This document shows, piece after piece, positions 31,002 through 44,011 of a stretch of 58,734 nt of DNA. The position numbers and the translations under genes are program-made. Under the pieces are notes generated by a model. It worked only from the letters and a program-made list of their open reading frames with translations. It did no database searches and had not been told where the DNA came from. Position 1 is the stretch's first letter. Each line of letters starts with the position of its first letter. This DNA comes from Fibrobacteria bacterium (GTDB lineage Bacteria; Fibrobacterota; Fibrobacteria; UBA11236), in NCBI GenBank assembly GCA_050486505.1, contig JBJHDK010000008.1, positions 1 to 58,734 of the forward strand, in the 5' to 3' direction.

Positions 31002-31048
31002 TCCGGGAATTATCTTCGGAGGCATCCGCGTGTTTTTACAATGCGGGG

Positions 31049-32038
31049 ATGCCCTCCCTGCCGAAGATGCGCGCCCTCTCCGGATTCCTGCTGACAGCAG
31101 GACTTTTTGTTTCGGTGTCCCCAAGCGCAGCCGCACCCGCGCAGGACGCCCCCCATCTTTCCCTCTTCGGTCGCATCGCGGAAAGCACGCGGCCCTCGAC
31201 CATTTCTTACGGCCCCGGAACGGTGCATCTCCCCGGAAGTTCCCTTGCGCCCGACAGCATGGCGCTCAGTTTCGAGGCGCGGGTCATTCCCCGGTTCACG
31301 GTGCTGCGGGCCGTGGAAGAGACCGGGCCGCTGGCGGGAAGCTGGTGGCTCACCGTGGATGCGGAGTTCATGGTGCGGCGCCATGCGAACCTTCCGTCCA
31401 ATCCCGTGCGCACGCCGGGGTACCGCCCGGGTGCCACGTTGCACTACGCTCCGCCCGGCGCCTCGCCGGAATCGTTCTGGCATGTCAGCGGCACGTGGTT
31501 CCACTGGTCGAACGGGCAGGAGGGGGAACTCTTCGTCGAGGGGCCGCTCGGTCCGGAGCTCAATACCGTGAACGGGAGCTTCAGCCTGTGGGGGGCGGGT
31601 GCAGCCCTGCACGCGCATCCCTCCGGGCGGTTCATGCCTGCGCACCTGGCGCTGAGGGGGGAGGCGTATTTCTTCAGGGAGGGCTGGCTCGCCGACGTGT
31701 ATCCCCACATGGCGGTGACACTCGAGGCCTTCGGGAAGGGGCGGCATTCCGGGTGGGCCGGGTTTTCGGGGGACACGCGCTGGTGGTCCGAACTGACGTG
31801 GCGGCCCTCGCAGGGAGGCGTGCTCGCGGAGCACTACGGGCCTGCGCCGTTCGGGTTTATGACGATGGCGGCGTATCGCCCCGATTGGCGTCCGGCGTTT
31901 CTTCCCTTTCGCGTGCATACCGGAAGTTTCTTCGCGTTCACACGGCTGTACCTTGGCCCGGATGAATACAACGTGCGCTTCGGCGAGCCGGTGCATCGCA
32001 TCGACTTCGGGTTTCTGGCGGGGCCTGGTGTGCGGTAA
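31049..32038 (+). CDS. Hypothetical outer-membrane protein with an OMPLA-like HxSNG motif
   Basis: Signal peptide; SNPVRTPGYRPG and FHWSNGQ; beta-strand-rich. Confidence 0.55.
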   Translation: MPSLPKMRALSGFLLTAGLFVSVSPSAAAPAQDAPHLSLFGRIAESTRPSTISYGPGTVHLPGSSLAPDSMALSFEARVIPRFTVLRAVEETGPLAGSWWLTVDAEFMVRRHANLPSNPVRTPGYRPGATLHYAPPGASPESFWHVSGTWFHWSNGQEGELFVEGPLGPELNTVNGSFSLWGAGAALHAHPSGRFMPAHLALRGEAYFFREGWLADVYPHMAVTLEAFGKGRHSGWAGFSGDTRWWSELTWRPSQGGVLAEHYGPAPFGFMTMAAYRPDWRPAFLPFRVHTGSFFAFTRLYLGPDEYNVRFGEPVHRIDFGFLAGPGVR

Positions 32039-32073
32039 CCCGTGCGTGGTGGCATTAGCTACGCTTTGACGGC

Positions 32074-33204
32074 ATGCCGGCCACACGCCCAAAAACGCTT
32101 GACGATTACCTCACGACCCCCGAAATGCAGCTGCTTCTCGCGTGTTGCGGCCGGGTCACGGGCGTCACGGACGAACCGGAAATCACCCGCGCGCTCGCGC
32201 GTGACTTCGATGAGAACACTTTCCTTGAATGTTGTCGCGATCACCGTCTGATCGCGCTGGTCTTCCGCCATCTGGTCAAGCCGTATCCGGATCGCTTTTC
32301 CCCGGAAGTTTACGCGGCCTTCGAGGGGGAATATCGGCAGTTGCAAATGGCCCACCTGCGCATGTCGAAGGCGGTGGTCGACCTGCATCGTGAAATGGGG
32401 GGGCGCGGTGTGCATCACCTCTTCCTCAAGGGACCGGTTCTCAATCAGCGCCTGTTCGGGAACGAGTTTTTGCGCTATTGCGGCGATGTCGACATGCTGG
32501 TCGATCACGGAAGCTTCGAGGAAGCCCATGCCGGGATGCTGCGGCTCGGGTACATCCCCCTGTTGCTCTGGTGGCAGCGGGCATTCGGTTTGTCCGTCCG
32601 CCGGACCCACCGCAAGGACGTGACCTACGTGCATCCGCCCTCGGGAGTTTTCGTGGAGATGCATTGGAAGACCGACCTGGTGGAGGTGTCGCTCGAGGGT
32701 TTCGACTGGAAGCGCGACGTGTCGATCTGCAGATTCCACGGCGCCGACGTGCCCGTGTTTCCGGAAGACCGGGACTTTCTTTATCTCTGCCTGCATGCGG
32801 CCAAGCACCATTGGGCGCGTTTTCGCTGGCTGCTTGACGTTGCCGTGATGCTGCGTCGCCCCGGATTCGACCCCGGCGTTGCTCTGGCCTTGGCGGAGCG
32901 GTACGGGTTGGGGGGCGTGGTGGAAGAAGCGCTGTGGATGTCGCAGCGCGTCTTCGGCGTCGAAGCCGCACCGGCGCCCGGGCGCGCCCTTGAAGTCGCG
33001 GGCCGCCGCGCCGAGGAGCGCTTTCTGGCCGACCGGTTCGCGTTCAAGCCGCTGCGCCCCCTGATTCGCACCTGGCACGGGGCGAAGATTTATCCGCGTT
33101 TGGGGCAAAGGGTTACATTCTGGCGCGTATGGCTGACGGAATGGGTGCTGGTGAAGCTGCCGGGGTTGCCTCCGAAGAGGGCAAAAAGCAAATGGTCTCC
33201 CTGA
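32074..33204 (+). CDS. Nucleotidyltransferase family protein (lasso-cluster associated)
   Basis: FLKG, RYCGDVDMLV, VEMHW, LHAAKH, RFRWLLDV. Confidence 0.85.
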   Translation: MPATRPKTLDDYLTTPEMQLLLACCGRVTGVTDEPEITRALARDFDENTFLECCRDHRLIALVFRHLVKPYPDRFSPEVYAAFEGEYRQLQMAHLRMSKAVVDLHREMGGRGVHHLFLKGPVLNQRLFGNEFLRYCGDVDMLVDHGSFEEAHAGMLRLGYIPLLLWWQRAFGLSVRRTHRKDVTYVHPPSGVFVEMHWKTDLVEVSLEGFDWKRDVSICRFHGADVPVFPEDRDFLYLCLHAAKHHWARFRWLLDVAVMLRRPGFDPGVALALAERYGLGGVVEEALWMSQRVFGVEAAPAPGRALEVAGRRAEERFLADRFAFKPLRPLIRTWHGAKIYPRLGQRVTFWRVWLTEWVLVKLPGLPPKRAKSKWSP

Positions 33205-34952
33205 AGCTGAAACGAATCGGCTCGTTCCTCGAGTACTACCGCGCCCTTGCCCGTTTTGCCCCGGTTCGGTTCGCACTGGGGTGCGTGATGTCCGTTGTCA
33301 GTGCCTTGCTCTCGGGCATCGGCCTGCTGATGGCGGTTCCCTTGTTGCATTTCGCCGGATGGCTGCCCGGTGAGGAGCAGGGCGGACTGGTCGGGCACGT
33401 CCTGAAAAGACTCCCTGAGCCCGGGGGTGCGCTTCCGCTCTTCGCGACGCTGGGAGCCTATGTCGTGCTCGTCGCCCTGTCGGCAGGATTCACCTACAGG
33501 TGGCAACTGTTGATGACGCACCTGTTCCAGGATTTCCTGTTTCGGCTTCGCACCGGCCTGAACGAATCCGTGGCACGCTGCGAGTGGTCGCACCTTGCGA
33601 CCAAGCGACTTCAGGAACTGCAGCACATGATCAACGTGGGAATCGATCGGGTCTCTGTGCTGACGCAGCATTCGATCCGGATGACTTCCGAAATTCTGCT
33701 GATTCTGGTGTTTTTCATCATTGCACTGCTTGTGTCCGTTCCGATGGCGTTGATCGCGGTCGCGATCTCCGTCATTCTTTTCCTGGTGCATATCCCCGGT
33801 CGCTCCTACCTGTTCGGCAAGGCTTCGCTTGAGGCGAGCCAGAATCTCTATGCCGAACTCTCGCGGTTTCTGGAGGGCGTCAAACCCGCCAAGGCAGGGG
33901 GGCTCACGGACAGGTATGTCGAGCGCTATGCGTCGCTGCTGCATGGGGAGTTGACTGTTCAACGCCGTTTCATTCGGGGGCAGGCCAAGACGCGATTTTC
34001 TTTTCAGGTGGCGGTCGCGGGAGTGTTTGCTGCTGTCTTCATTGTTGCCGTGAACTTTTTGGGCGCTTCGGCTGCATCCTTGCTGGTTCTGCTCCTGCTT
34101 CTGTCGCGCTTGATGCCGCATGTTCTTGCCCTGTTGGAATCGGTGCGCCAAACAATGAATGCGTTGCCGGCCTATGGCGAGATGCGCCTCATGCTTTCCG
34201 ACCTCACCGCGCATCGCGAGGTAACAACGCACTCAGACCGGCTTCACCTGCAAAAAGCGATCCGCCTCGAAGACGTGCGCTTCACGTACCCTGGGACGAC
34301 GGAGGCAGGCCTTCGCGGCGTGACATGTGAAATCCCCGCGGGCATGATCACGGCGGTGGTCGGGCCGTCCGGCGCGGGGAAGACCACGCTGGCCGACCTT
34401 CTTCTCGGCCTCATCATCCCGCAGGCGGGCCGCGTGACCGTGGACGACGTGCCGTTGTCTTCCGGTAACGCCGGGGGGTGGAAGGCGCGCGCCGCTTATG
34501 TTCCGCAGGATCCGTTCCTGTTTCATGATTCGATCCGCGCCAATCTCGTTTGGGCGGATCCAGGGGCATCGGAGGAGCGCATCTGGAGAGCCCTCGAGGA
34601 TGCCTCCGCGGCCGGTTTCGTGAGGGCGCTTTCCGCCGGTCTTGACACGCCGGTCGGTGATCGCGGCAACCGCTTGTCGGGAGGCGAGCGCCAGCGGCTG
34701 GCGATCGCGCGGGCGCTGTTGCGCGACCCTGAGGTTCTGGTTCTTGACGAAGCCACGAGCGCTCTCGACACTGTCAATGAGGAAACGGTTCATGCCGCGC
34801 TGCGCCGCTTGCGCGGCAAGGTGACGATCGTCCTCATCAGCCACCGACCCGGGGCGCTCGGACTCGCCGATCATGTGATCATGTTGGAGGGGGGGCGGGT
34901 TGCCCGGCCAGGGACTTCGGAGGGGGATTCTTCGTCGTCGCCTTCCGGGTGA
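33192..34952 (+). CDS. ABC exporter (TMD + NBD), lasso peptide D-type
   Basis: TM domain, GPSGAGKTT, LSGGERQR, LDEATSALD. Confidence 0.9.
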   Translation: MVSLKLKRIGSFLEYYRALARFAPVRFALGCVMSVVSALLSGIGLLMAVPLLHFAGWLPGEEQGGLVGHVLKRLPEPGGALPLFATLGAYVVLVALSAGFTYRWQLLMTHLFQDFLFRLRTGLNESVARCEWSHLATKRLQELQHMINVGIDRVSVLTQHSIRMTSEILLILVFFIIALLVSVPMALIAVAISVILFLVHIPGRSYLFGKASLEASQNLYAELSRFLEGVKPAKAGGLTDRYVERYASLLHGELTVQRRFIRGQAKTRFSFQVAVAGVFAAVFIVAVNFLGASAASLLVLLLLLSRLMPHVLALLESVRQTMNALPAYGEMRLMLSDLTAHREVTTHSDRLHLQKAIRLEDVRFTYPGTTEAGLRGVTCEIPAGMITAVVGPSGAGKTTLADLLLGLIIPQAGRVTVDDVPLSSGNAGGWKARAAYVPQDPFLFHDSIRANLVWADPGASEERIWRALEDASAAGFVRALSAGLDTPVGDRGNRLSGGERQRLAIARALLRDPEVLVLDEATSALDTVNEETVHAALRRLRGKVTIVLISHRPGALGLADHVIMLEGGRVARPGTSEGDSSSSPSG

Positions 34953-34962
34953 TCAGGCGCTG

Positions 34963-35577
34963 TTACCGGTTTGCGGCATTCGGACGAAAATGGAAGAACC
35001 AGGTCTTCCAGCGTTCACCCTTGGGGCCTAGATACCAACTCTCCGCCCTTCGGACCTCGGCGAACTTTTCAGCCAGCAGGGCGAGCTTCGGACCTTCGCT
35101 TCCTTGCGGGAGCGTCAGGAGGTAGTGCCCATCGGGGCGAATCAATCCCGAAATGCTTTCCACATAGTCGGAGAAAAACATTTTCGCCTGGCCCGCGAAG
35201 CAGCCGCGATCCACGATCACGTCGAAACGCCTGTCGAGTTTCGTATGAAGGACGTTGTCCTTCACGAACTCGACGTGCACACCGCAGCTTTCCGCATTTT
35301 TTTTCGCCTGGGAAAGACTGAAAGTCGAAACATCCGTCGCGGTCACATTGAACCCCAGCTCGGCCATCCGGATGGCCTGCCATCCGACGCCGGTTCCCAC
35401 ATCAAGCAAGGTTTCTCCATGGATGGATCCGCCTTTGAGGGTCGCGGCGAGATCCTCGTCCAAGGTTTCGATTTCCGCCATGAAGGCGTCCTTCGGGTCG
35501 ACGCCCTTGTTGCGGTTGACGTACTTGGCCTCCCACATCAATCCGAGAATCGCATGGCGGCGTTTTCTTTCGTCCAC
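34963..35577 (-). CDS. Class I SAM-dependent methyltransferase
   Basis: LLDVGTGVG, TATDVS, FDVIVDRGCF. Confidence 0.85.
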   Translation of the reverse strand: MDERKRRHAILGLMWEAKYVNRNKGVDPKDAFMAEIETLDEDLAATLKGGSIHGETLLDVGTGVGWQAIRMAELGFNVTATDVSTFSLSQAKKNAESCGVHVEFVKDNVLHTKLDRRFDVIVDRGCFAGQAKMFFSDYVESISGLIRPDGHYLLTLPQGSEGPKLALLAEKFAEVRRAESWYLGPKGERWKTWFFHFRPNAANR

Positions 35578-35763
35578 GGGCGTCCCTCACATGGGCCGTT
35601 TCGGCCCGTAAATTCGGTGTAAAAGTATATTTCCCGGCGTTCACGTTATAAAACGCGAGTTTGAGGTGTCACTTCTCCGTGCAGGCGGAGACGCGCGCGG
35701 TGGCCGGCCGGCGGGTTCGACGGCGCAGGGGTTCCGTGCGATTCGATGGGGAAAGAGGAAACC

Positions 35764-36066
35764 ATGAGCGGGCATCCGTTGGAAAACCTGGAACTGCAGA
35801 CCCGGCTGGAGCGCAATGCTGAAATCTTCGCCGCCGATGTTGACGATGAAATGGTCATGATGGACGGCGAGCAGGGGTTGTACTTCGGCCTGAACACCGT
35901 GGCCCGCAAGATCTGGGAATTCCTGGATCGGCCTCGCACCTACGGCGAGCTCTTGAAAGCACTCGAAGAATCCTACGACGTGGACGCCGAGCGTTGTCGC
36001 GCCGATGTGGAGCCCTTTCTCCGCAAGATGTTGGAACACGGGCTTGTTCGTGTGCATTCTGAATGA
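35764..36066 (+). CDS. PqqD-family RiPP recognition element (lasso B1)
   Basis: DVDDEMVMMD...YFGLNTVARKIWEFL...YDVD...CRADV..FL..M...GLV; RBS GAGG. Confidence 0.92.
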   Translation: MSGHPLENLELQTRLERNAEIFAADVDDEMVMMDGEQGLYFGLNTVARKIWEFLDRPRTYGELLKALEESYDVDAERCRADVEPFLRKMLEHGLVRVHSE

Positions 36067-36506
36067 TATTGACAGGGCTTGCAAGAGTTTTGGGAAAACG
36101 CGGGCTCGCCGGGCTCTACCTGGAAGCACTGATGGAAATGGCGTGGTGCAAGGTGCTCACGGTCTTCGTGCCTTTCGGTCGCTGGGCGCACCGCCAGGGC
36201 CGCTTCCAGAGTGAGACGCTCAAGGATGACAGATCCGCGGAGCTGCCCCGCATCCAGGCGATCCGGGGAGCGATTCTGCGCATCGCGCGCCGCGCGCCTT
36301 GGAGAAGCAAGTGTCTCGATCAGGCCCTGGTGATGCAGCGCATGCTGGCCCGTCGCGGTCTTCCATCCACCACGTACTACGGCATGAAGCGCGATGCGTC
36401 CGGCAACTGGATCGCCCATGCGTGGGTGCGCTGCGGAAGCATCTGGGCGATCGGGTATCAGCATGGTGAGGAGTACACCGTCGTAGGCGCGTACGCGCGA
36501 TTGTGA
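36063..36506 (+). CDS. Lasso peptide leader peptidase B2 (transglutaminase-like)
   Basis: SKCLDQAL (Cys) and AHAWV (His); coupled to B1. Confidence 0.92.
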   Translation: MILTGLARVLGKRGLAGLYLEALMEMAWCKVLTVFVPFGRWAHRQGRFQSETLKDDRSAELPRIQAIRGAILRIARRAPWRSKCLDQALVMQRMLARRGLPSTTYYGMKRDASGNWIAHAWVRCGSIWAIGYQHGEEYTVVGAYARL

Positions 36507-36513
36507 AAGCGAT

Positions 36514-37722
36514 TCAGGCTGGTTCGACCGATATGCTGTCCGGATGTGCCTGGTTGCCGAATTTGTAGCTGATAGTGAAGCGATCCCCGGGGGACACTCC
36601 GCGAGTTTCCGGCAGGATCCATACCGGGTTGGACCAACTGTTGTCCTCTCCAGACTCATTCGGATGAGTGCTCAAACGGATGCCGCCGCCGAGATCAAGA
36701 GTGAAGTATATGAACAGCCCGTTCCATTTCCCCGTGGCCAAGATTGACACGCTTTCCTTGACGTGGGGCAGTTCGGCTCCACATCGTTGAAAGTCGATGT
36801 CCGACAGTAGAACCGGATCGCTCAGCATGGGCCACTTTCGGATGGAATGCGCTCTTGCGAAAAAACGGGTGGACGTGTTACTTGAAAACCGCTCCAAAGG
36901 GCTGAAGTCGAATCCGTACCACTCCTGCCAGCGTCCTAATCCCGTTGGCTCAAATATGTTGCTCTCCAATTTGCCGTCGCTGATTGTAACCGGGATGCCG
37001 AACACTCGAAGGCGTTCAGGAATCAGCCGGGCGTCAGGCTTAAGAAAGCGTTTTCGTGCATCGGCGGTATAAAACAAAACATTCTCCCCGAATGGATCAT
37101 TGCCGATGATTTCACTAATCAACACGTCCGCGGGCTCGGGAAGGTCGACTCTGGTCGACCACCCCTCGATGATTTGAATACGATCGCCGTATCCATTAGC
37201 GATAAAGTTCTCGCGTGCGGCATATCCAATGCGGTTTGCCTCAATCGCGTACACGCGCCTCGCGCCTGCTCGCGCAGCCGCCATGGCGAGTATTCCCGTT
37301 CCGGTCCCGATCTCTACCACGGTGTCTCCGGGGCGAACAACCTTTTCGATCGCCTTCAGATAGCTTTCAGTTCGAGCGCGATCATTGAGCATGGAGATAT
37401 GAACGGGCGCGGAACCGAATCCGCCCGTTGCGAGTGCGGGGATCTCTTGGCCTTTCGTAATCAATATTCCCGCTGCATAAAGTCGGCGGACTTCCCCCAT
37501 CAACTCGACCATGTCCAAAGGGTTCTTTGCAAACGCCTTTAAGGCTTCAAGTGCACTGGAGACGGTCGTTGGCCTGGAGAAAGCATTCAGCATGGCCAGT
37601 GTATGTATCCCGCCGGCATAGCGATCCCCCTGAACCCTGATCTGTAGTCTGGTGCCGCCCTCCAGCACCATGTGGATCGACGATGCGCACTGCAGAACGG
37701 TGGAAGGGGTCAATTTTTGCAT
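36514..37722 (-). CDS. PRMT-like SAM methyltransferase with N-terminal RRE-like domain
   Basis: HISMLNDRAR..Y, VVEIGTGTGIL, VYAIEA, DVLISE..G....E; visibly lower GC than flanks. Confidence 0.8.
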   Translation of the reverse strand: MQKLTPSTVLQCASSIHMVLEGGTRLQIRVQGDRYAGGIHTLAMLNAFSRPTTVSSALEALKAFAKNPLDMVELMGEVRRLYAAGILITKGQEIPALATGGFGSAPVHISMLNDRARTESYLKAIEKVVRPGDTVVEIGTGTGILAMAAARAGARRVYAIEANRIGYAARENFIANGYGDRIQIIEGWSTRVDLPEPADVLISEIIGNDPFGENVLFYTADARKRFLKPDARLIPERLRVFGIPVTISDGKLESNIFEPTGLGRWQEWYGFDFSPLERFSSNTSTRFFARAHSIRKWPMLSDPVLLSDIDFQRCGAELPHVKESVSILATGKWNGLFIYFTLDLGGGIRLSTHPNESGEDNSWSNPVWILPETRGVSPGDRFTISYKFGNQAHPDSISVEPA

Positions 37723-37857
37723 GCGGGCAAAGGATAACAACAGGTTTGTGCACCGTACTTGGGGGCCTCAAGTCCATGATGACTATATTCGTGCGGCCGA
37801 AAGTCGGGGGGGTACGCGTCCGGGCCGTACTCGGACACAGATTCGCGGGACTCTTTC

Positions 37858-38742
37858 TTGAACCGTTACCGTGCCTTCGGGCTTTCCATTGCATCGAAGT
37901 TCTCCCTGCCGGAGCTTCTCCCCGAAGGGGATGCCGGAGCCTCCGTCGATCTATGGGTCAAGGAGTGGGTGGAAGGCGAGGAAGGGGCGCCTTCCTTCAC
38001 TTCCGGAGACGAGGCGACGGGAAGCCTCTACCACCTCTCCGTTTCGGGAGTGGCCGATTTTCGGATCGAAGACGGCACACGCATTCATTTTCGGCGCGCC
38101 TCGGAAACGGTCGATGATGCGATCGTGCGTTTGTTCTTGTTGGGTTCCGGGTTCGGGTGTGCGCTGCAGCAGCGCGGGTGCATCGTGCTGCACGGGAATG
38201 CGGTGACCACGGACGGGGAAACCTGTCGCATCGTGGTGGGGCATTCCGGTGCGGGCAAGTCGACATCCGCCGCCCTTGCCTACAAGCAGGGAGCCCGGAT
38301 CCTCGCGGACGACGTCTGCGCCATCACGCTGGATTCGAACGGGACCGGGTGGGTGCACCCTGCGTACCCCCAGATCAAATTGTGGAAACGCAGCGCGGAT
38401 CTGTTGGGAATCTCCGTCGAGGGACTGCGGAGGATTCGTCCCTCCGATGAGAAGTATGCGTTGCCGATTCGCGACCGCTATTGGCCGACTCCGCTGCCCC
38501 TTGCGGAAGTCGTCGAATTGAGCGCGGAGAACACGGAGGAAACCCCGTCGCGGGGCTTCGACAAGGCGCGTTGCCTTGCCGAGCACAGCTATCGCAACTG
38601 GTTTCTTTCGAACATGGGTATCAAGGCCGAATACATGGACAAGTTGATGCGGCTTGTTTCCCGGGTCGAGGTGCGCCGCGGTGTGCGTGCCGATCTTTCC
38701 GCCCTGGGTTTTACGGCAAGGCAGGGAGCAGGTGAAGCATGA
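37858..38742 (+). CDS. HPr kinase-like lasso peptide kinase
   Basis: LHGNAV, GHSGAGKST, LADDV, YPQIKLW; coupled to the cyclase. Confidence 0.88.
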   Translation: MNRYRAFGLSIASKFSLPELLPEGDAGASVDLWVKEWVEGEEGAPSFTSGDEATGSLYHLSVSGVADFRIEDGTRIHFRRASETVDDAIVRLFLLGSGFGCALQQRGCIVLHGNAVTTDGETCRIVVGHSGAGKSTSAALAYKQGARILADDVCAITLDSNGTGWVHPAYPQIKLWKRSADLLGISVEGLRRIRPSDEKYALPIRDRYWPTPLPLAEVVELSAENTEETPSRGFDKARCLAEHSYRNWFLSNMGIKAEYMDKLMRLVSRVEVRRGVRADLSALGFTARQGAGEA

Positions 38743-40574
38743 ACGGTTTCAGCGGGGTGTGGTTTTTCGACGGTCGCCCGGTGGATGCGACATTGCTTTC
38801 CCGATGCGCGTACCGGAGCCCCATGTGGGAGCCCGATCATCTTGGCATCCGGTTGTTCGATGGCGCGGGCTTCACGTCCACCCAGCGCTTCGTGATGCCG
38901 GAAGAGCCGCACGCGCTCATGCCCTTCGAGGATGTGGAGTCGGGGTGCGTCATCGTCGCGGACTCCTTGCTTGCGCATCGCGAAGAGCTTGCGGATGCAT
39001 TGGGAGTCGCGCATGCAGCGTCCGATTGCGAACTGATCCTCGCCGCCTGGAAAAAGTGGGGTGCGGAATGTCCGCGTCGCCTTTTCGGGCACTTTTCCTT
39101 CTTTATCTGGGACCCCCGGAATCATCGGGCTTTCGCCGCCACGGATCATTTCGGCATGCGCCCTCTCTACTATGCCTTCGAGCCGGGGCGGGGCGTGACG
39201 ATCTCGAACACCATGGAGCCTTTCCGGATTCTTCGGCAGGGGCTCACCATCAATCTGAACCAGTTCCAGCATTTCGCGGTGGACACCATGCCTGCCGGTG
39301 AAACGTGCTACCGCGAAGTGGCCAAGCTGCCGGCGGCTCATTCCTTGCTCGTGACTCCGGAGCGTGCGCGTACGCGTCGCTACTGGCGCCTCAAGGAACA
39401 GCGTCATCGGCTTCCGCAGTCGACCCGCGAAGACTATTACGAGGCATTTCGTGAACGGTTCGCGCGGGCGGTGGGGACGTATTTGCGCACCGAGCACCCT
39501 GTTCTGGCATACATCAGCGGGGGGCTGGACTCGTCGTCGGTGGCGTCGATGGCCGCGAAGCTGCTGGGCGAAGCGAACCGGAACATTTTGGGGTTCACGG
39601 CGATTCCCCATACGCTGGAGGGGTCGAGTCGTCGGCGCGGATGGTACTATCACGAATTGCCCGTCGCGCGCTCCATTTCGGAACAGTACCCCAATGTCCT
39701 CCATCACGTCTATCGCACCGACCCCGATGCGGATCCGTTGCGCGAGTTGTCGGCCCTGCATTCCCAAGTGGATCATCCGGCACGCAACGTGATGAATTGG
39801 CATTGGATCAACGGCGCGTTCCGCCATGCGATCGCCAACGGTTCGCGACTGACCCTGGGTGGGGACCGGGGCAATGGAAACATTTCCTGGGATGGGGCGG
39901 ACTTGCGCTCGCGGTACAACCTGCTGCGCGGATTCGTCCGGAACTGGCCGTTTGTCCGGCGGCTCCTGCCGGATGCCTATCTCGAGGTGGTGAACCCCGG
40001 TGTGTTGCGGGTTCCCGCAGTTCGGGCCGCGTTGCGCAAGCGTGGGTGTACGCTCGACCTGCACTACTGGATGCTGGCCATGGAGCCGTTGACTCCCGGC
40101 TTCGCCTACATCCGGCACCCTGCCCTGTACCACGGCGTGGAACATGCCGACCCGACCTCAGACGTGCCGCTGACCGAGTTCTGTTTCAACTTGCCGGAAT
40201 GGGTGCACTATCGAATGCCGCGGCGGGAAAGGCGGCCACAACATACGCGATTGTTGGTTCGCGAAGGGCTCGCGGGGATCGTTCCAGAGGCGGTTCGCTT
40301 CAATGTGAACCGGGGTGAGCAGGCGGCGGACGCCTACCTGCAGTACAATCGTCACGGGCAAGCCTGGAGGACGCGCCTCGATTCCATGTCTCCGGCTGCC
40401 GCCTCGGTCTTCGAGCGGTGCATTGACCGCGCCGCTCTCCGCCGCATTTTCGACAACTACCCCCATATTGCGGAGCCACCGGATGAGGAGACGGAGTTCA
40501 CGGTGTGCATCGTGTTGGCGCGCGCACTCGCCGCCGCTGATTTTATCGACTTTCTCGATCGGAACTCCGGTTGA
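38739..40574 (+). CDS. Lasso cyclase (asparagine synthetase homolog)
   Basis: TDHFGMRPLYY, SGGLDSS; lacks the N-terminal catalytic Cys of true AsnB (MNGFSG). Confidence 0.9.
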   Translation: MNGFSGVWFFDGRPVDATLLSRCAYRSPMWEPDHLGIRLFDGAGFTSTQRFVMPEEPHALMPFEDVESGCVIVADSLLAHREELADALGVAHAASDCELILAAWKKWGAECPRRLFGHFSFFIWDPRNHRAFAATDHFGMRPLYYAFEPGRGVTISNTMEPFRILRQGLTINLNQFQHFAVDTMPAGETCYREVAKLPAAHSLLVTPERARTRRYWRLKEQRHRLPQSTREDYYEAFRERFARAVGTYLRTEHPVLAYISGGLDSSSVASMAAKLLGEANRNILGFTAIPHTLEGSSRRRGWYYHELPVARSISEQYPNVLHHVYRTDPDADPLRELSALHSQVDHPARNVMNWHWINGAFRHAIANGSRLTLGGDRGNGNISWDGADLRSRYNLLRGFVRNWPFVRRLLPDAYLEVVNPGVLRVPAVRAALRKRGCTLDLHYWMLAMEPLTPGFAYIRHPALYHGVEHADPTSDVPLTEFCFNLPEWVHYRMPRRERRPQHTRLLVREGLAGIVPEAVRFNVNRGEQAADAYLQYNRHGQAWRTRLDSMSPAAASVFERCIDRAALRRIFDNYPHIAEPPDEETEFTVCIVLARALAAADFIDFLDRNSG

Positions 40575-40862
40575 ACGGGTGAGCTGATGTCGGGTGATAT
40601 CGGGATCAGTACCACACGATGATGCGCTGACGTGGTCGCACATGATCCGCATCCTCGAAAATGATTGTTAATTGACCATCTGCACGAATTCCGCGACTCT
40701 GTCATAAAATCGCGAAGTTGTCATTTAGCCAAAATGTTTCTCCCCGTTTGTCTTTATGTGAAACGGTCAGCCTGTTAGTTTCCCGGCGTGTCCGTTGCAT
40801 TGCGTCTCAGTTTCATTCATTGGAAGCGTGGGTTGGCTTGTAAAAAGCGATACGAGATCTGA

Positions 40863-41048
40863 ATGCGTTTGATCAAAAAAGAAATCAACACTCAGAGCCA
40901 GAACAGTCAATCTTGGGTTGCACCCGTTGTCGAGGCCATCGCAGTCTGGGAAAACACCTTGGCGGCCAACAACTCCTCTTCCGATGGTCCTCTTTGTCTT
41001 GGATCGATGGGCCCTGCCACGAACTGTCCTGTGGAGCCGCTCTCTTGA
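40863..41048 (+). CDS. Lasso peptide precursor A1
   Basis: Leader WVAP...ENTL (Thr at -2); predicted core AANNSSSDGPLCLGSMGPATNCPVEPLS. Confidence 0.9.
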   Translation: MRLIKKEINTQSQNSQSWVAPVVEAIAVWENTLAANNSSSDGPLCLGSMGPATNCPVEPLS

Positions 41049-41341
41049 TCTGTAGGGAGCAAGGTTCCGTCATTCAAGTCAAGTGAGTCGGTTCCCGGCA
41101 CGAATTGGCGTCACCTTGTGGCGTCGCATAACGCGTCGCCACAACTTTATGCCATAATGTCATTTGATTTGGCACAAGTACTCAATTATGCCATTAAAGC
41201 GAAGATTGACATTTAGTCATATGATTTCGCGCATTTGTGGCCTTTTCGTGCAGCAATCGCCTCCTACTTTTTTCGCAGGAAATGGGAAAAATGTCTCGAA
41301 AGCTCGGGAAAATGCCGTTTTCATCACAAAAAGGGAATAAG

Positions 41342-41527
41342 ATGCGTTTTTCGAATCAAACCGAATCCGTCACTCAAAACCAGAAGAATCAGCCCTGGGT
41401 CGCCCCTGTCGTCGAGGCCATCGCCGTTTGGGAAAACACCTTGGCCGCCAACAATTCGACGGCCGATGGCCCGCTTTGTACTGGATCGATGGGGCCGGCC
41501 ACGAGCTGCATCGACCCGATCTCCTGA
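41342..41527 (+). CDS. Lasso peptide precursor A2
   Basis: RBS AAGGGA; leader WVAP...ENTL; predicted core AANNSTADGPLCTGSMGPATSCIDPIS. Confidence 0.9.
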   Translation: MRFSNQTESVTQNQKNQPWVAPVVEAIAVWENTLAANNSTADGPLCTGSMGPATSCIDPIS

Positions 41528-41778
41528 CGTCTTCCCGGGGTTCGGGTGATCTCTGATCCCCTGTCGCTCAGGCCGATAAATTTTGTCCTTATGTCACGCG
41601 TGGCGACTGACAACCGTGTCAGGCCGTTATTCGTTGTTTTGCAATATTGGCAATAGTTTGCGTGTTCCTGATTCCTCGAAAGCGCATTAAGATTGATGCT
41701 CGAAATCGCCTCGCCGTGACACACGCGGATTCGCGAGATCCATTCAGGCTCCCTTGGGGGAGAGAAAAGGGAACGAGC

Positions 41779-41967
41779 ATGCAGAACACAAACATGAACA
41801 GCGAATCCGTTTTTGCGACGGAGAGCCTCAAGTGGCAGGCCCCCGTCGTCGAGACCATCGCGGTGTGGGAGAACACCTTTGCAGCGAACGACTCTGCTTC
41901 GGATGGCCCGCTGTGCCCGGGTATGATGGGTGCCGCCGATCTGTGCTCGGTCGATCCGTCTTCCTGA
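41779..41967 (+). CDS. Lasso peptide precursor A3
   Basis: RBS AAGGGA; leader WQAP...ENTF; predicted core AANDSASDGPLCPGMMGAADLCSVDPSS. Confidence 0.9.
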   Translation: MQNTNMNSESVFATESLKWQAPVVETIAVWENTFAANDSASDGPLCPGMMGAADLCSVDPSS

Positions 41968-41991
41968 CCCACTCATGCGTTGAATTATTCC

Positions 41992-42023
41992 AAGCAGGCC
42001 GCCCAAGGGGCGGCCTGCTTTTT
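41992..42023 (+). terminator. Intrinsic terminator after precursor A3
   Basis: AAGCAGGCCGCCC...GGGCGGCCTGCTT stem followed by a T tract. Confidence 0.88.
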
Positions 42024-42059
42024 GTCGCCAGAGCTGAAGTTCTTGGGGGGGCGACCGAG

Positions 42060-42686
42060 CTATGCCCGGTGCACCCAGCAGTTGATCGCGAAGCGCGAAT
42101 CTTCGAACCGGCCGCTCGGACACGCGACGGGGAGCACTCCGTGCGGGTACCACGACGGGAAAAATGCCAAGGTGTCGTGGTCCGGCAGAATGTCGACATG
42201 CGGCCGGTTTTCCGGGGACCCCTGAACGGGGGAGTAGAGCCGAAGCGTCCCCCCCGAAAATCCCTTGGGAAATGCGTGAAAGTAATAGACGCCGCTGATG
42301 GCGCGCTGGGTGTCGCTGCTTTTCACCTTCACGAACGTGTCGGTATGCGTCGTAAAGAACGCGCCGTTACCGTGCGCGGCCATTTCGAACTCGAAGGCCG
42401 CGGGGGTGAAGGCGGCAACGCCAAGCTGCGAGGTCATTTGAGGCAGGCTTTGTTTGAGGCGTTCCTTGAGATGTTCCTTGATCCCGTGGAGGTCTTTCAG
42501 GATCAGGGAAATCCGTTGCCTGGGATCCACGGCGCTGTGTTCCCCATACCCGGTTTTCGAAGGTTCGAAGCGCTCCCGGTTCGCAAGCGCGAAGTCGAGC
42601 AACTTCCGCGCACCCTCCGCGCCCAGCCAGTCCCGAAGAATCCCGTGCGGCGGCGGGCGGTTGAGGAGTTTTTCGAGCGAGCTCAC
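42060..42686 (-). CDS. 2OG-Fe(II) oxygenase (prolyl-hydroxylase-like)
   Basis: HTD, GGTLRL, FFPSWYPHGV, SRFAINCW; GTG at 42686 overlaps the upstream stop. Confidence 0.85.
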   Translation of the reverse strand: MSSLEKLLNRPPPHGILRDWLGAEGARKLLDFALANRERFEPSKTGYGEHSAVDPRQRISLILKDLHGIKEHLKERLKQSLPQMTSQLGVAAFTPAAFEFEMAAHGNGAFFTTHTDTFVKVKSSDTQRAISGVYYFHAFPKGFSGGTLRLYSPVQGSPENRPHVDILPDHDTLAFFPSWYPHGVLPVACPSGRFEDSRFAINCWVHRA

Positions 42687-44011
42687 CCCGCCCTCACGCA
42701 CTTCTCGTACAACGTCGGAAACCGCCCCTCGGGGTCGTATTTCGCCTTGAGTGCGCGGGCGCCGTCGCCGTTGTAGACGCGGTCGAATTCGGCCTCGTCC
42801 ATGAACGACGACGAGTAGAGCATCTTCACCCCGCCGAGGTCGAGGCACTTGCGGTCCATGATGCGGGTGGCGCCGAAGTCTTCCCCCTCCGACTTGCGCA
42901 CGCGGCAATAGCAACCCAGGTTGAAATACAGCGTATCGGGTTCCACCGGGTAAAGCGTCGGCCGGTGCGGGGTGCGAATGGCCACCGCCAGCCAGGGCTT
43001 GCCGTCCAGGTCGACCGACTCCAGCGCGAAGCGGAGCAGCTCGCCGGCGCGGTCCCACGGCACCTCCCAGTCCTGGATGAGCAATTCCTTGCCGTCCTGC
43101 TTCTTGATTCCGAGGCGCTCCTGCAGGTGCAGCCAGCGCTTGTAGAACCCCGAGTGCCGCATGAATCCGGGGGCCCAGCGGCGCATCAACCGGTAGGGTA
43201 GGGTCTCGGGGATGTTCCAGAACCATTCCGGATCGTAGCGGAAGAGATAGTCCTTCGTGGCCAGCCACAGGTCGCGCCGCTCGCCGACCAGCTTGTAGTA
43301 CACGTTGCGGCGCACGATGTCGTCGGCGCGGGGGGCCTCTTCGATGTAGCGCGACACCGTCAGCAGGAACCGGTCGGGCGCGTACATCAGGGCCTCCACG
43401 AAGTCGGCGTCGGCGCGCTCCGTGGCCTCGCGCATGGCCGCGAGGAAGGCGTCGGTGTCGGCGAAGGTCTCGGTGCGCAGGTGCACGAAGGGTTTGGCAG
43501 GCTCGAGGCGCACCTTCGCGCGCAGGATATAGCCGAGCGTTCCGTAGGAGTTTCCCAGCGCGCGGAAGAGGTCCGCATGCGCGTTGTCGGGGGTGGCGAC
43601 GACGATCTCGCCGGTGGGCAGCAGCACCTCCGCTTCGAGCAGGGAATCATGCACGAAGCCGTGGCGGTGGCAGTTCGATTCGATGCCGATGCCCACGGAC
43701 GCGCCGCCGATGGTGATGTGCTTCAGCTCGGGGGTGACGAGGGGCGCGAATCCGTGCGGCACGGTGGCATCCACGATGGATTCGAAGGTGGCGAGCCCCT
43801 CGACGTCGAGGACGCGGTTCACGGGGTCGAGCCCGAGGACTTCGTTGAACCCGCTCAGGTCGACGAAGGTCACGTCCTTGCCGCGCTTGCGCGGCGTGTA
43901 GCGGAAGAGGTTCGACGCGGTGCGCTTGCGCAAGGCGAACTTCCCGCCGCCCGCGGCGATGCGGGCCAGCAATTCGCGCTTCTTCGCCGCATGCCGTTCG
44001 TGGGTCGTCAT
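42683..44011 (-). CDS. FAD-binding oxidoreductase (TmsA/BfaA/Rv3719-like)
   Basis: SNLFR, PELKHITIGGA..GIGIES, DYLFRYD..WFW, KMLYS, KAKYDP..RFPTLYEK. Confidence 0.82.
   Translation of the reverse strand: MTTHERHAAKKRELLARIAAGGGKFALRKRTASNLFRYTPRKRGKDVTFVDLSGFNEVLGLDPVNRVLDVEGLATFESIVDATVPHGFAPLVTPELKHITIGGASVGIGIESNCHRHGFVHDSLLEAEVLLPTGEIVVATPDNAHADLFRALGNSYGTLGYILRAKVRLEPAKPFVHLRTETFADTDAFLAAMREATERADADFVEALMYAPDRFLLTVSRYIEEAPRADDIVRRNVYYKLVGERRDLWLATKDYLFRYDPEWFWNIPETLPYRLMRRWAPGFMRHSGFYKRWLHLQERLGIKKQDGKELLIQDWEVPWDRAGELLRFALESVDLDGKPWLAVAIRTPHRPTLYPVEPDTLYFNLGCYCRVRKSEGEDFGATRIMDRKCLDLGGVKMLYSSSFMDEAEFDRVYNGDGARALKAKYDPEGRFPTLYEKCVRAG

Follow-up and report, generated by a model that had tools for sequence, protein, structure and literature searches.

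The window analysed here is a stretch of 58,734 nucleotides from a Fibrobacteria bacterium (contig JBJHDK010000008.1), and its positions 32074-42023 were proposed in an earlier note to carry a complete gene cluster for lasso peptides, a kind of peptide made by ribosomes and modified after translation (RiPP). By combining open reading frame analysis of the window with Pfam and NCBIfam assignment, eleven open frames with zero internal stops were found in this interval. All the genes listed in the earlier note (B1, B2, a cyclase lacking Cys1, an ABC exporter, a kinase, a nucleotidyltransferase, two methyltransferases and three precursors) were recovered in their places, and the claim of a complete lasso set also held, with three A genes, B1, B2, C and D present as open frames with Pfam/NCBIfam matches. 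Judged from sequence, the interval is a real and intact lasso-peptide gene cluster with three precursors.

The core lasso machinery is encoded on the forward strand. B1, a PqqD-like leader-recognition protein or RiPP recognition element (RRE; 35746-36066, +), matches PqqD at E 2.4e-19 and lasso_PqqD_Bac at E 3.9e-18, and B2, a transglutaminase-like leader peptidase (36063-36506, +), matches Transglut_core3 at E 1.5e-21 and the lasso_biosyn_B2 family NF033537 with 77.9 bits against a cut-off of 33. The 611-aa Asn-synthase-like lasso cyclase (38739-40574, +) contains GATase_7 and Asn_synthase domains and matches NF033535 at E 1.9e-63, with a score of 215 bits that falls short of the curated cut-off of 525 bits. 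Its SGGLDSS motif does not vary across the clade alignment, and because the protein begins with MNGFSG it lacks Cys1, which is catalytic in glutamine-hydrolysing asparagine synthases. The D protein is an ABC exporter with fused permease and ATPase (33129-34952, +; ABC_tran 1.9e-30, ABC_membrane 1.5e-7); its start is probably the ATG at 33192, because the frame overlaps the upstream nucleotidyltransferase gene.

The remaining enzymes are candidate tailoring functions. The nucleotidyltransferase (32074-33204, +; 376 aa) belongs to the NTP_transf_5 family (PF14907, E 1.1e-40, residues 45-295) and occupies a PsmN/BsfN-like position, and an HPr-kinase-like peptide kinase of 294 aa (37858-38742, +) matches TIGR04352 at E 4.2e-6 and, at profile level, HPrK/P structures. 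A small class I S-adenosylmethionine (SAM)-dependent methyltransferase of 204 aa (34963-35577, -) matches Methyltransf_31/25/11 at E 2e-12 to 3e-9, and its solved-structure matches are generic methyltransferases only. A larger methyltransferase with PrmA/PRMT_C matches (36514-37740, -) comprises 408 aa when counted from a TTG start, an ATG being found at codon 7. Both methyltransferase genes lie on the strand opposite to the other cluster genes, with convergent stops: that of the 204-aa enzyme is 10 bp from the ABC stop, and that of the 408-aa enzyme is 7 bp from the B2 stop, the latter gene being also 117 bp from the kinase start.

Three paralogous precursors follow the cyclase, namely A1 (40863-41048, +; 61 aa; predicted core residues 34-61, AANNSSSDGPLCLGSMGPATNCPVEPLS), A2 (41342-41527, +; 61 aa; predicted core AANNSTADGPLCTGSMGPATSCIDPIS; 72% identical to A1) and A3 (41779-41967, +; 62 aa; predicted core AANDSASDGPLCPGMMGAADLCSVDPSS; 54% identical to A1). 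The gene caller's version of A2 has 78 aa from an upstream start, and no precursor gene beyond these three could be found in the 2.4-Mb genome. An intrinsic terminator hairpin lies 3' of the precursors (41992-42020, +), with a 13-bp stem and a U run (-27.9 kcal/mol; z -4.88), and none of 200 shuffles was as stable. The alignment of A1, A2 and A3 contains 30 invariant columns. DNA repeat among the three genes is limited to the coding parts, and in the conserved stretch D1 17-25% of bases differ; such base divergence with a kept peptide fits selection on the peptide. The spacers before the precursor genes (40575-40862, 41049-41341 and 41528-41778) have a GC content of 0.45-0.53, are the AT-richest segments in the window and do not repeat one another. 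Given these AT-rich spacers, each precursor gene may have its own promoter.

The precursors carry the expected lasso features, namely a Thr at -2 and an Asp or Glu at core position 7-9. In A1, Thr32 stands at -2 and is followed by one residue, with the core starting from Ala34 and Asp41 being core Asp8; Cys45, Cys55 and the C-terminal Ser61 are the other marked positions. A core from Ala34 onward would likely yield an 8-residue ring and a 20-residue tail. Only one foreign precursor homologue, the 60-aa P0002, was found among 5.8 billion proteins. In an alignment of eight precursors (the three of the window, P0002 and four beside the nearest cyclase relatives, from four genomes and one metagenome protein), all eight share Trp18, Pro21, Asp41, Gly42 and the C-terminal Ser, and the remaining core is variable. 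Core Cys12 and Cys22 are invariant in A1-A3 and P0002, and these tail cysteines can form a predicted disulfide loop of class IV-like topology. The ring Asn3 and two prolines are invariant in the window cores. Arg, Lys, His and aromatic residues are completely absent from all three cores, which is why the disulfide may matter as a plug. Arg2 is found in the leaders of A1 and A2 only, and the entire A3 precursor is free of Arg. The single Arg of P0002 is not conserved.

By sequence, the 408-aa methyltransferase matches in the PDB Trypanosoma PRMT7 (TbPRMT7, 4m36; E 6.8e-28), a protein arginine methyltransferase (PRMT). A model made with AlphaFold2 from an alignment of 66 family members reached a predicted local distance difference test score of 94, and a Foldseek search with it returned PRMT7 (4m38, E 6e-26) with PRMT3, PRMT6 and CARM1 next, the TM-scores to the targets being 0.72-0.84. 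Residues of about 107-408 comprise the PRMT Rossmann domain and beta-barrel. Among the 66 family members, the GxGxG motif is conserved in all, the double-E loop residues E210 and E219 in 65 and 66, respectively, and Trp369 of the THW loop in every one; the residue preceding it is Ser in the window enzyme, His in 34/66 and Ser in 28/66. The N-terminal part (about 1-105) is RRE/PqqD-like and is modelled as four strands followed by three helices. In an hhalign comparison, these 105 residues matched a profile of 38 lasso B1 sequences with a probability of 93% (E 3.5e-7, 94 columns), the control against a B2 profile giving 0.1%; the Pfam PqqD model gave zero match to the N-terminal 112 residues. 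With the RRE assignment resting on profile-profile comparison, the enzyme is predicted to be an RRE-PRMT fusion, and the homology of its N-terminal domain to lasso B1 suggests that it acts on a RiPP precursor under guidance by the leader. The RRE-like domain had been overlooked in the earlier note.

The PRMT-like family is large: at E<=1e-30, the 50% library contains 744 of its representatives, and 782 of its proteins are in the 90% library. Nearly all of them are metagenomic and labelled as 'L11 methyltransferase' or 'PRMT1'; foreign proteins match the window enzyme with an identity of 56% at best. A tblastn search of plasmids yielded one weak match, annotated as L11 methyltransferase.

Because the single-sequence Pfam match of the kinase was weak (E 0.0056, below threshold), a profile was built from 39 kinases adjoining lasso cyclases. 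This family profile matched the HPrK/P structures 2qmh and 1jb1 at E 2.9e-10 over a region spanning the catalytic His, the P-loop and the DD segment, and H112, G133-K134-S135, D151-D152 and K199 are invariant in the family. TIGR04352 matches all 39 members, every one under the curated cut-off.

Several searches were performed to identify relatives of the cluster. The best foreign homologue of the cyclase is 46% identical, about 24 proteins fall at 34-49% and the next at 31%. A search of genome contigs with the cyclase alone found one relative (35% identity), and in a 300-genome sample of the class to which one of the cyclase homologues belongs (its record being titled Gammaproteobacteria), a full-length match was present in 4 genomes. 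The nearest clusters are found in low-GC genomes of another class (cyclase 40-43% and kinase about 46% identical). One of these loci, L108 (GC 0.34), contains B1 (57% identity), B2, the kinase (46%), the cyclase (41%), the ABC exporter (37% over 573 aa) and the nucleotidyltransferase (31% over 354 aa), with no methyltransferase. Another, L107, contains the cyclase, the kinase (also about 46% identical), B2 and B1.

More divergent arrangements were also observed. At L109 (11365-13182, -) and L110 (7371-9380, +), close cyclase homologues (38-43%) adjoin a 605-669-aa protein without a Pfam match, not B1/B2, with precursors from the same leader family in the vicinity. One in-frame TGA is present in the cyclase frame of G324:C4. 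In two genomes of the class of the window genome (G287 and G285), kinase-, NTP_transf_5- and B2-like segments share one 761-aa frame (L115:3586-5871, +, and L116), after which a PqqD protein and an ABC exporter are encoded, with no cyclase match nearby; by their domain content, these loci may be a cyclase-less relative of lasso kinase systems.

A broader background was provided by 80 metagenomic lasso-type loci found by generic cyclase motifs (SGGLDSS, RGEQ), which represent ordinary lasso/AsnB cyclases of 26-37% identity outside the close clade. Homologues of the tailoring genes were counted by tblastn (E<=1e-8), and the counts are floors because many contigs are short. A kinase was present in at least 43 of the 80 loci, a nucleotidyltransferase in at least 17 and both together in at least 16; the co-occurrence of these two enzymes is thus common rather than exceptional. 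PRMT-like methyltransferase homologues were found in 4/80 loci, and homologues of the 204-aa methyltransferase in 0/80. In L089 (1177-2670, -) and L082 (159-1676, -), the PRMT-like domain is fused to a lasso PqqD (B1) in a protein of 497-505 aa, followed by B2, and the methyltransferase there appears to replace or extend B1. L073 has a PRMT-like gene of 344 aa next to a nucleotidyltransferase gene.

In the biosynthetic pathway proposed for the window cluster, every enzymatic step is drawn from family membership. The RRE of B1 would bind the precursors via a leader motif consisting of a Trp, a Pro three residues on and the Thr at -2. The HPr-kinase-like enzyme would place a phosphate on the precursor, the invariant C-terminal Ser being its most probable site, and B2 would cleave after Thr-Leu or Thr-Phe, so that the cyclase could link the freed amine of Ala1 to the side chain of Asp8. 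The resulting lasso could be further constrained by the disulfide between Cys12 and Cys22. By analogy with PsmN in pseudomycoidin, the NTP_transf_5 enzyme would probably elaborate the phosphoserine. The 408-aa enzyme could perform a leader-guided methylation for which an Asn carboxamide such as that of Asn3 is the guessed acceptor, and the 204-aa methyltransferase may contribute a second methylation. The ABC protein would export the products. In favor of this pathway, catalytic motifs are kept in the kinase (His, P-loop, DD), the cyclase (SGGLDSS) and the PRMT-like enzyme (GxGxG, double-E), and the six-gene core of B1, B2, kinase, cyclase, ABC exporter and nucleotidyltransferase recurs in L108. 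The close packing of the genes, with the terminator behind the last precursor, also speaks for it.

The earlier note had anticipated products combining a lasso ring, a tail disulfide, a phosphorylated or phosphoglycosylated Ser and methylation, and these expectations were borne out to different degrees. For the ring and disulfide, the Thr at -2 is in place, Asp8 and the two tail cysteines are invariant, and the chemistry of the product is still deduced. The C-terminal phosphoserine fits a Ser kept in all eight precursors beside an HPrK-like kinase with intact motifs, with the counter-example of BsfK discussed below bearing on the predicted site. For phosphoglycosylation, the gene for an NTP_transf_5 enzyme is indeed there, and its reaction is proposed by analogy. 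As for methylation, the two SAM-dependent methyltransferases are present, but an obvious acceptor is not, one enzyme having a PRMT fold and the cores being free of Arg, Lys and His.

Several findings weigh against this account of the pathway. Between the Trp/Pro motif and the Thr at -2, the window precursors have one residue more than the L107 relatives, and the single-sequence match of the kinase is below threshold, as mentioned above. BsfK, the sole characterised kinase from a Gram-negative cluster with kinase and nucleotidyltransferase, targets Ser3 according to the accessible part of its description (PMC10368454), and the window cores have ring serines at positions 5-7. Moreover, PRMT-like enzymes in the other lasso loci adjoin Arg/Lys-rich cores, which makes an Arg-free substrate set anomalous. 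It may thus be that the 408-aa enzyme is idle, that it acts on the leader (whose Arg2 is confined to A1 and A2) or that its target is non-peptide or related to immunity.

The last of these points concerns the most serious alternative. A PRMT would be expected to have Arg in its substrate, and no Arg was found in the three cores; given that Lys and His are missing as well, the 408-aa enzyme either methylates another group or acts off the cores. One reading is that it methylates a non-Arg, non-Lys residue in these lasso peptides, the best candidate being a side-chain carboxamide, such as that of ring Asn3, which is ranked first on the grounds that an N-H donor would fit the double-E pocket well; this suggestion is put forward tentatively. 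O-methylation of phosphate or carboxylate by the PRMT-like enzyme was also considered and rated less likely, since the acidity of the double-E pocket should be repulsive to an anionic acceptor. On the other hand, the enzyme might leave the cores unmodified and instead carry out self-protective methylation of a cellular protein, methylate the leader or be a passenger from a donor with Arg peptides. Such an off-core role agrees not only with the lack of basic residues but also with L071, L073 and L089, in which the cores accompanying a PRMT-like gene are rich in Arg or Lys and fit arginine or lysine methylation there, with the absence of any methyltransferase from the closest related clusters (L107 and L108), and with the GC content at third codon positions (GC3) of the 408-aa gene, which at 0.62 is the lowest among the large cluster genes. 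We nevertheless consider it rather unlikely: the frame is intact with all PRMT motifs kept, the N-terminal domain homologous to lasso B1 argues for leader binding, the gene is wedged between those of B2 and the kinase, and the sole foreign precursor homologue has just its one non-conserved Arg.

Methylation of a non-Arg core residue, if true, would extend the PRMT fold to a new chemistry and lasso peptides to a new modification, and the 'arginine methylation' assumed across the kinase/PRMT-like lasso subfamily would need checking. The cluster is in this respect a natural test, as an intact PRMT-like enzyme with a presumed leader-binding function lies beside three substrates without Arg, Lys or His. 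Its expression would show whether the 782-protein, almost wholly metagenomic PRMT-like family really methylates arginine. No paper linking a PRMT-fold enzyme to a lasso peptide, nor one describing this kinase/PRMT-like subfamily, was found in the literature covered, most subscription journals being outside that coverage.

With regard to the phosphorylation site, the cluster kinase most probably modifies the invariant C-terminal Ser in the paeninodin manner, a site favored because all eight precursors end in Ser, as is expected of paeninodin-type precursors. The accessible part of PMC9266682 describes C-terminal Ser phosphorylation by paeninodin-type kinases as well as the roles of PsmK and PsmN, the latter being linked to hexose addition on the phosphoserine of pseudomycoidin. 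The accessible part of PMC10368454 reports that ring Ser3 of BsfA is the target of BsfK from Bradymonas sediminis, a kinase that requires both the leader and B1; given this ring target, the phosphosite in the window peptides is a prediction. A ring serine (core Ser5-7), present in all three cores, could be the target instead. We regard this as improbable, since the C-terminal Ser is invariant in the eight precursors while the ring residues are wholly different among relatives, BsfA itself ends in Asp (PMC10368454, as far as accessible), and the paeninodin-type kinases target the C-terminal Ser.

The genomic context suggests that the cluster was acquired at a variable site. Synteny with three congeners extends over both flanks (SDR, Eda and KdgK genes at one end, FAD oxidase and CFA synthase genes at the other end), and the stretch from KdgK to the FAD-oxidase/CFA-synthase genes (31002-42682 in the window, compared with L111, L112 and L113) is filled in these congeners by 4.7-10 kb of unrelated DNA; this gap is a variable hot spot in the genus. 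The cluster block has a GC content of 0.595 and the rest of the window one of 0.646, and GC3 is 0.58-0.77 in the cluster genes and 0.80-0.91 in the flanking genes. A full-length cyclase was not found in 40 relatives, where the other matches were AsnB-like, with E values of at least 6e-27, and covered the N-terminal half. By position and composition, the block appears to be a horizontally acquired, strain-specific island in the hot spot. Lasso clusters seem to be rare in this phylum: a lasso B2 passes the cut-off in 3 of 296 genomes, and a PRMT-like gene at E<=1e-20 is found in 2 of 296, tallies that include the unpublished genome G276, which has no relevant match. The PRMT-like gene of the second phylum genome has no RRE domain, and no lasso gene was found in the 12 kb of its contig that the search covered. 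A survey of 425 rumen genomes reported, in its accessible part, complete lasso clusters in Firmicutes only (PMC7533575). No characterised lasso peptide from the lineage of the window was found in the literature listings and abstracts covered, which, together with the scarcity of B2, is in line with the lineage claim of the earlier note.

A strain-specific block with a GC content below that of the host, within a variable hot spot, could also be a silent or decaying acquisition without a product in this organism, but this seems very unlikely considering its eleven open frames, the 30 invariant columns kept by the three precursors, the 17-25% base divergence in D1 that fits selection on the peptide, and the intact terminator. 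Thus, it is quite probable overall that the window carries a horizontally acquired, intact lasso cluster with the tailoring pathway proposed above, which would be a case of a RiPP cluster transferred into a phylum where such clusters are rare.

Two genes bordering the block were also noted. Immediately upstream (31049-32038, +), a 329-aa protein with a signal-peptide-like N-terminus is encoded, which had zero Pfam or NCBIfam matches and which the congeners lack at this site. Just downstream, a strain-specific prolyl-4-hydroxylase (P4H)-like 2-oxoglutarate (2OG)-Fe(II) oxygenase of about 213 aa (42060-42701, -; 2OG-FeII_Oxy_3, E 2e-15; P4H structure 6t8m, weak at E 1.2e-4), overlooked in the earlier note, is convergent with the precursor genes and represents a candidate twelfth tailoring gene. 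It had no match in the 40 relatives at E<=1e-10 and is absent at the same site in the three congeners. Its GC3 of 0.78 is cluster-like, that of the neighbouring FAD and CFA genes being 0.87-0.91, and the two invariant prolines of the cores also speak for its membership, while its overlap with the stop of the conserved FAD gene and the lack of a homologue in all 99 comparison loci speak against it. The chance that the oxygenase belongs to the cluster may be about one in three.

Compared with known systems, the cluster appears to work like those of paeninodin, pseudomycoidin and bsf, and its sequence features are those expected when a lasso cluster includes an HPrK-like kinase. It shares with the paeninodin-type systems (PadeK, ThcoK and SyanK), as described in the accessible parts of PMC9266682 and PMC10368454, the split B1/B2, the Asn-synthase-like cyclase, the ABC exporter, the HPrK-like kinase and precursors ending in Ser. 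It differs from them in its two methyltransferases, its three precursors, a 28-residue core with two tail cysteines and its phylum. The window cyclase is only 27% identical to the nearest named Paenibacillus cyclase, and PadeK was likened by description, not alignment. The pseudomycoidin cluster of Bacillus pseudomycoides likewise combines a kinase (PsmK) and a nucleotidyltransferase (PsmN, again likened by description) in one lasso cluster; in contrast to the window, its host is a Firmicute and no methyltransferase is described for it in the accessible part of PMC9266682. The bsf cluster of Bradymonas sediminis FA350 (BsfA/B1/B2/C/D/K/N) is Gram-negative and has the same seven functions, including K and N, with B1 assisting the kinase. 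Unlike the window precursors with their Thr at -2 and C-terminal Ser, BsfA has Ile at -2, an Asp end and a phosphorylated ring Ser3, and no methyltransferase is mentioned for bsf, whereas the window has two (PMC10368454, for the part accessible).

The 408-aa enzyme resembles the eukaryotic-type PRMT7, PRMT6, PRMT3 and CARM1 in fold, SAM motif, double-E loop and beta-barrel, and differs from them in its N-terminal RRE-like domain, in the replacement of the THW His by Ser and in its presumed Arg-free substrates. A similar linkage of a PRMT-fold methyltransferase to an RRE domain in kinase-bearing lasso clusters is seen in the metagenomic loci L071, L073, L082 and L089, whose PRMT domains are only 28-36% identical to that of the window. 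However, the PRMT of L073 lacks an N-terminal RRE, and those of L089 and L082 are fused to the B1 PqqD at the C-terminus, whereas the RRE of the window enzyme is N-terminal; the Arg/Lys/His-free cores and the second small methyltransferase further separate the window from these loci.

LP2006 is a class IV lasso peptide with a tail-to-tail disulfide. The likeness lies in the position of the cysteines, as both window Cys residues (core 12 and 22) are in the tail and their predicted disulfide would also be tail-to-tail; the LP2006 sequence is not known to be related to the window cores. Phosphorylated lasso peptides are already known, and the Arg-free substrates would directly test the assumed arginine methylation. 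Moreover, three related scaffolds are available in the cluster, each possibly bearing a tail disulfide and a phospho(glycosyl) C-terminus. Taken together, the comparison suggests that the cluster is set apart from the known systems by its predicted RRE-PRMT enzyme, its second small methyltransferase, its three long, Cys-bearing and base-free cores, and its host lineage.

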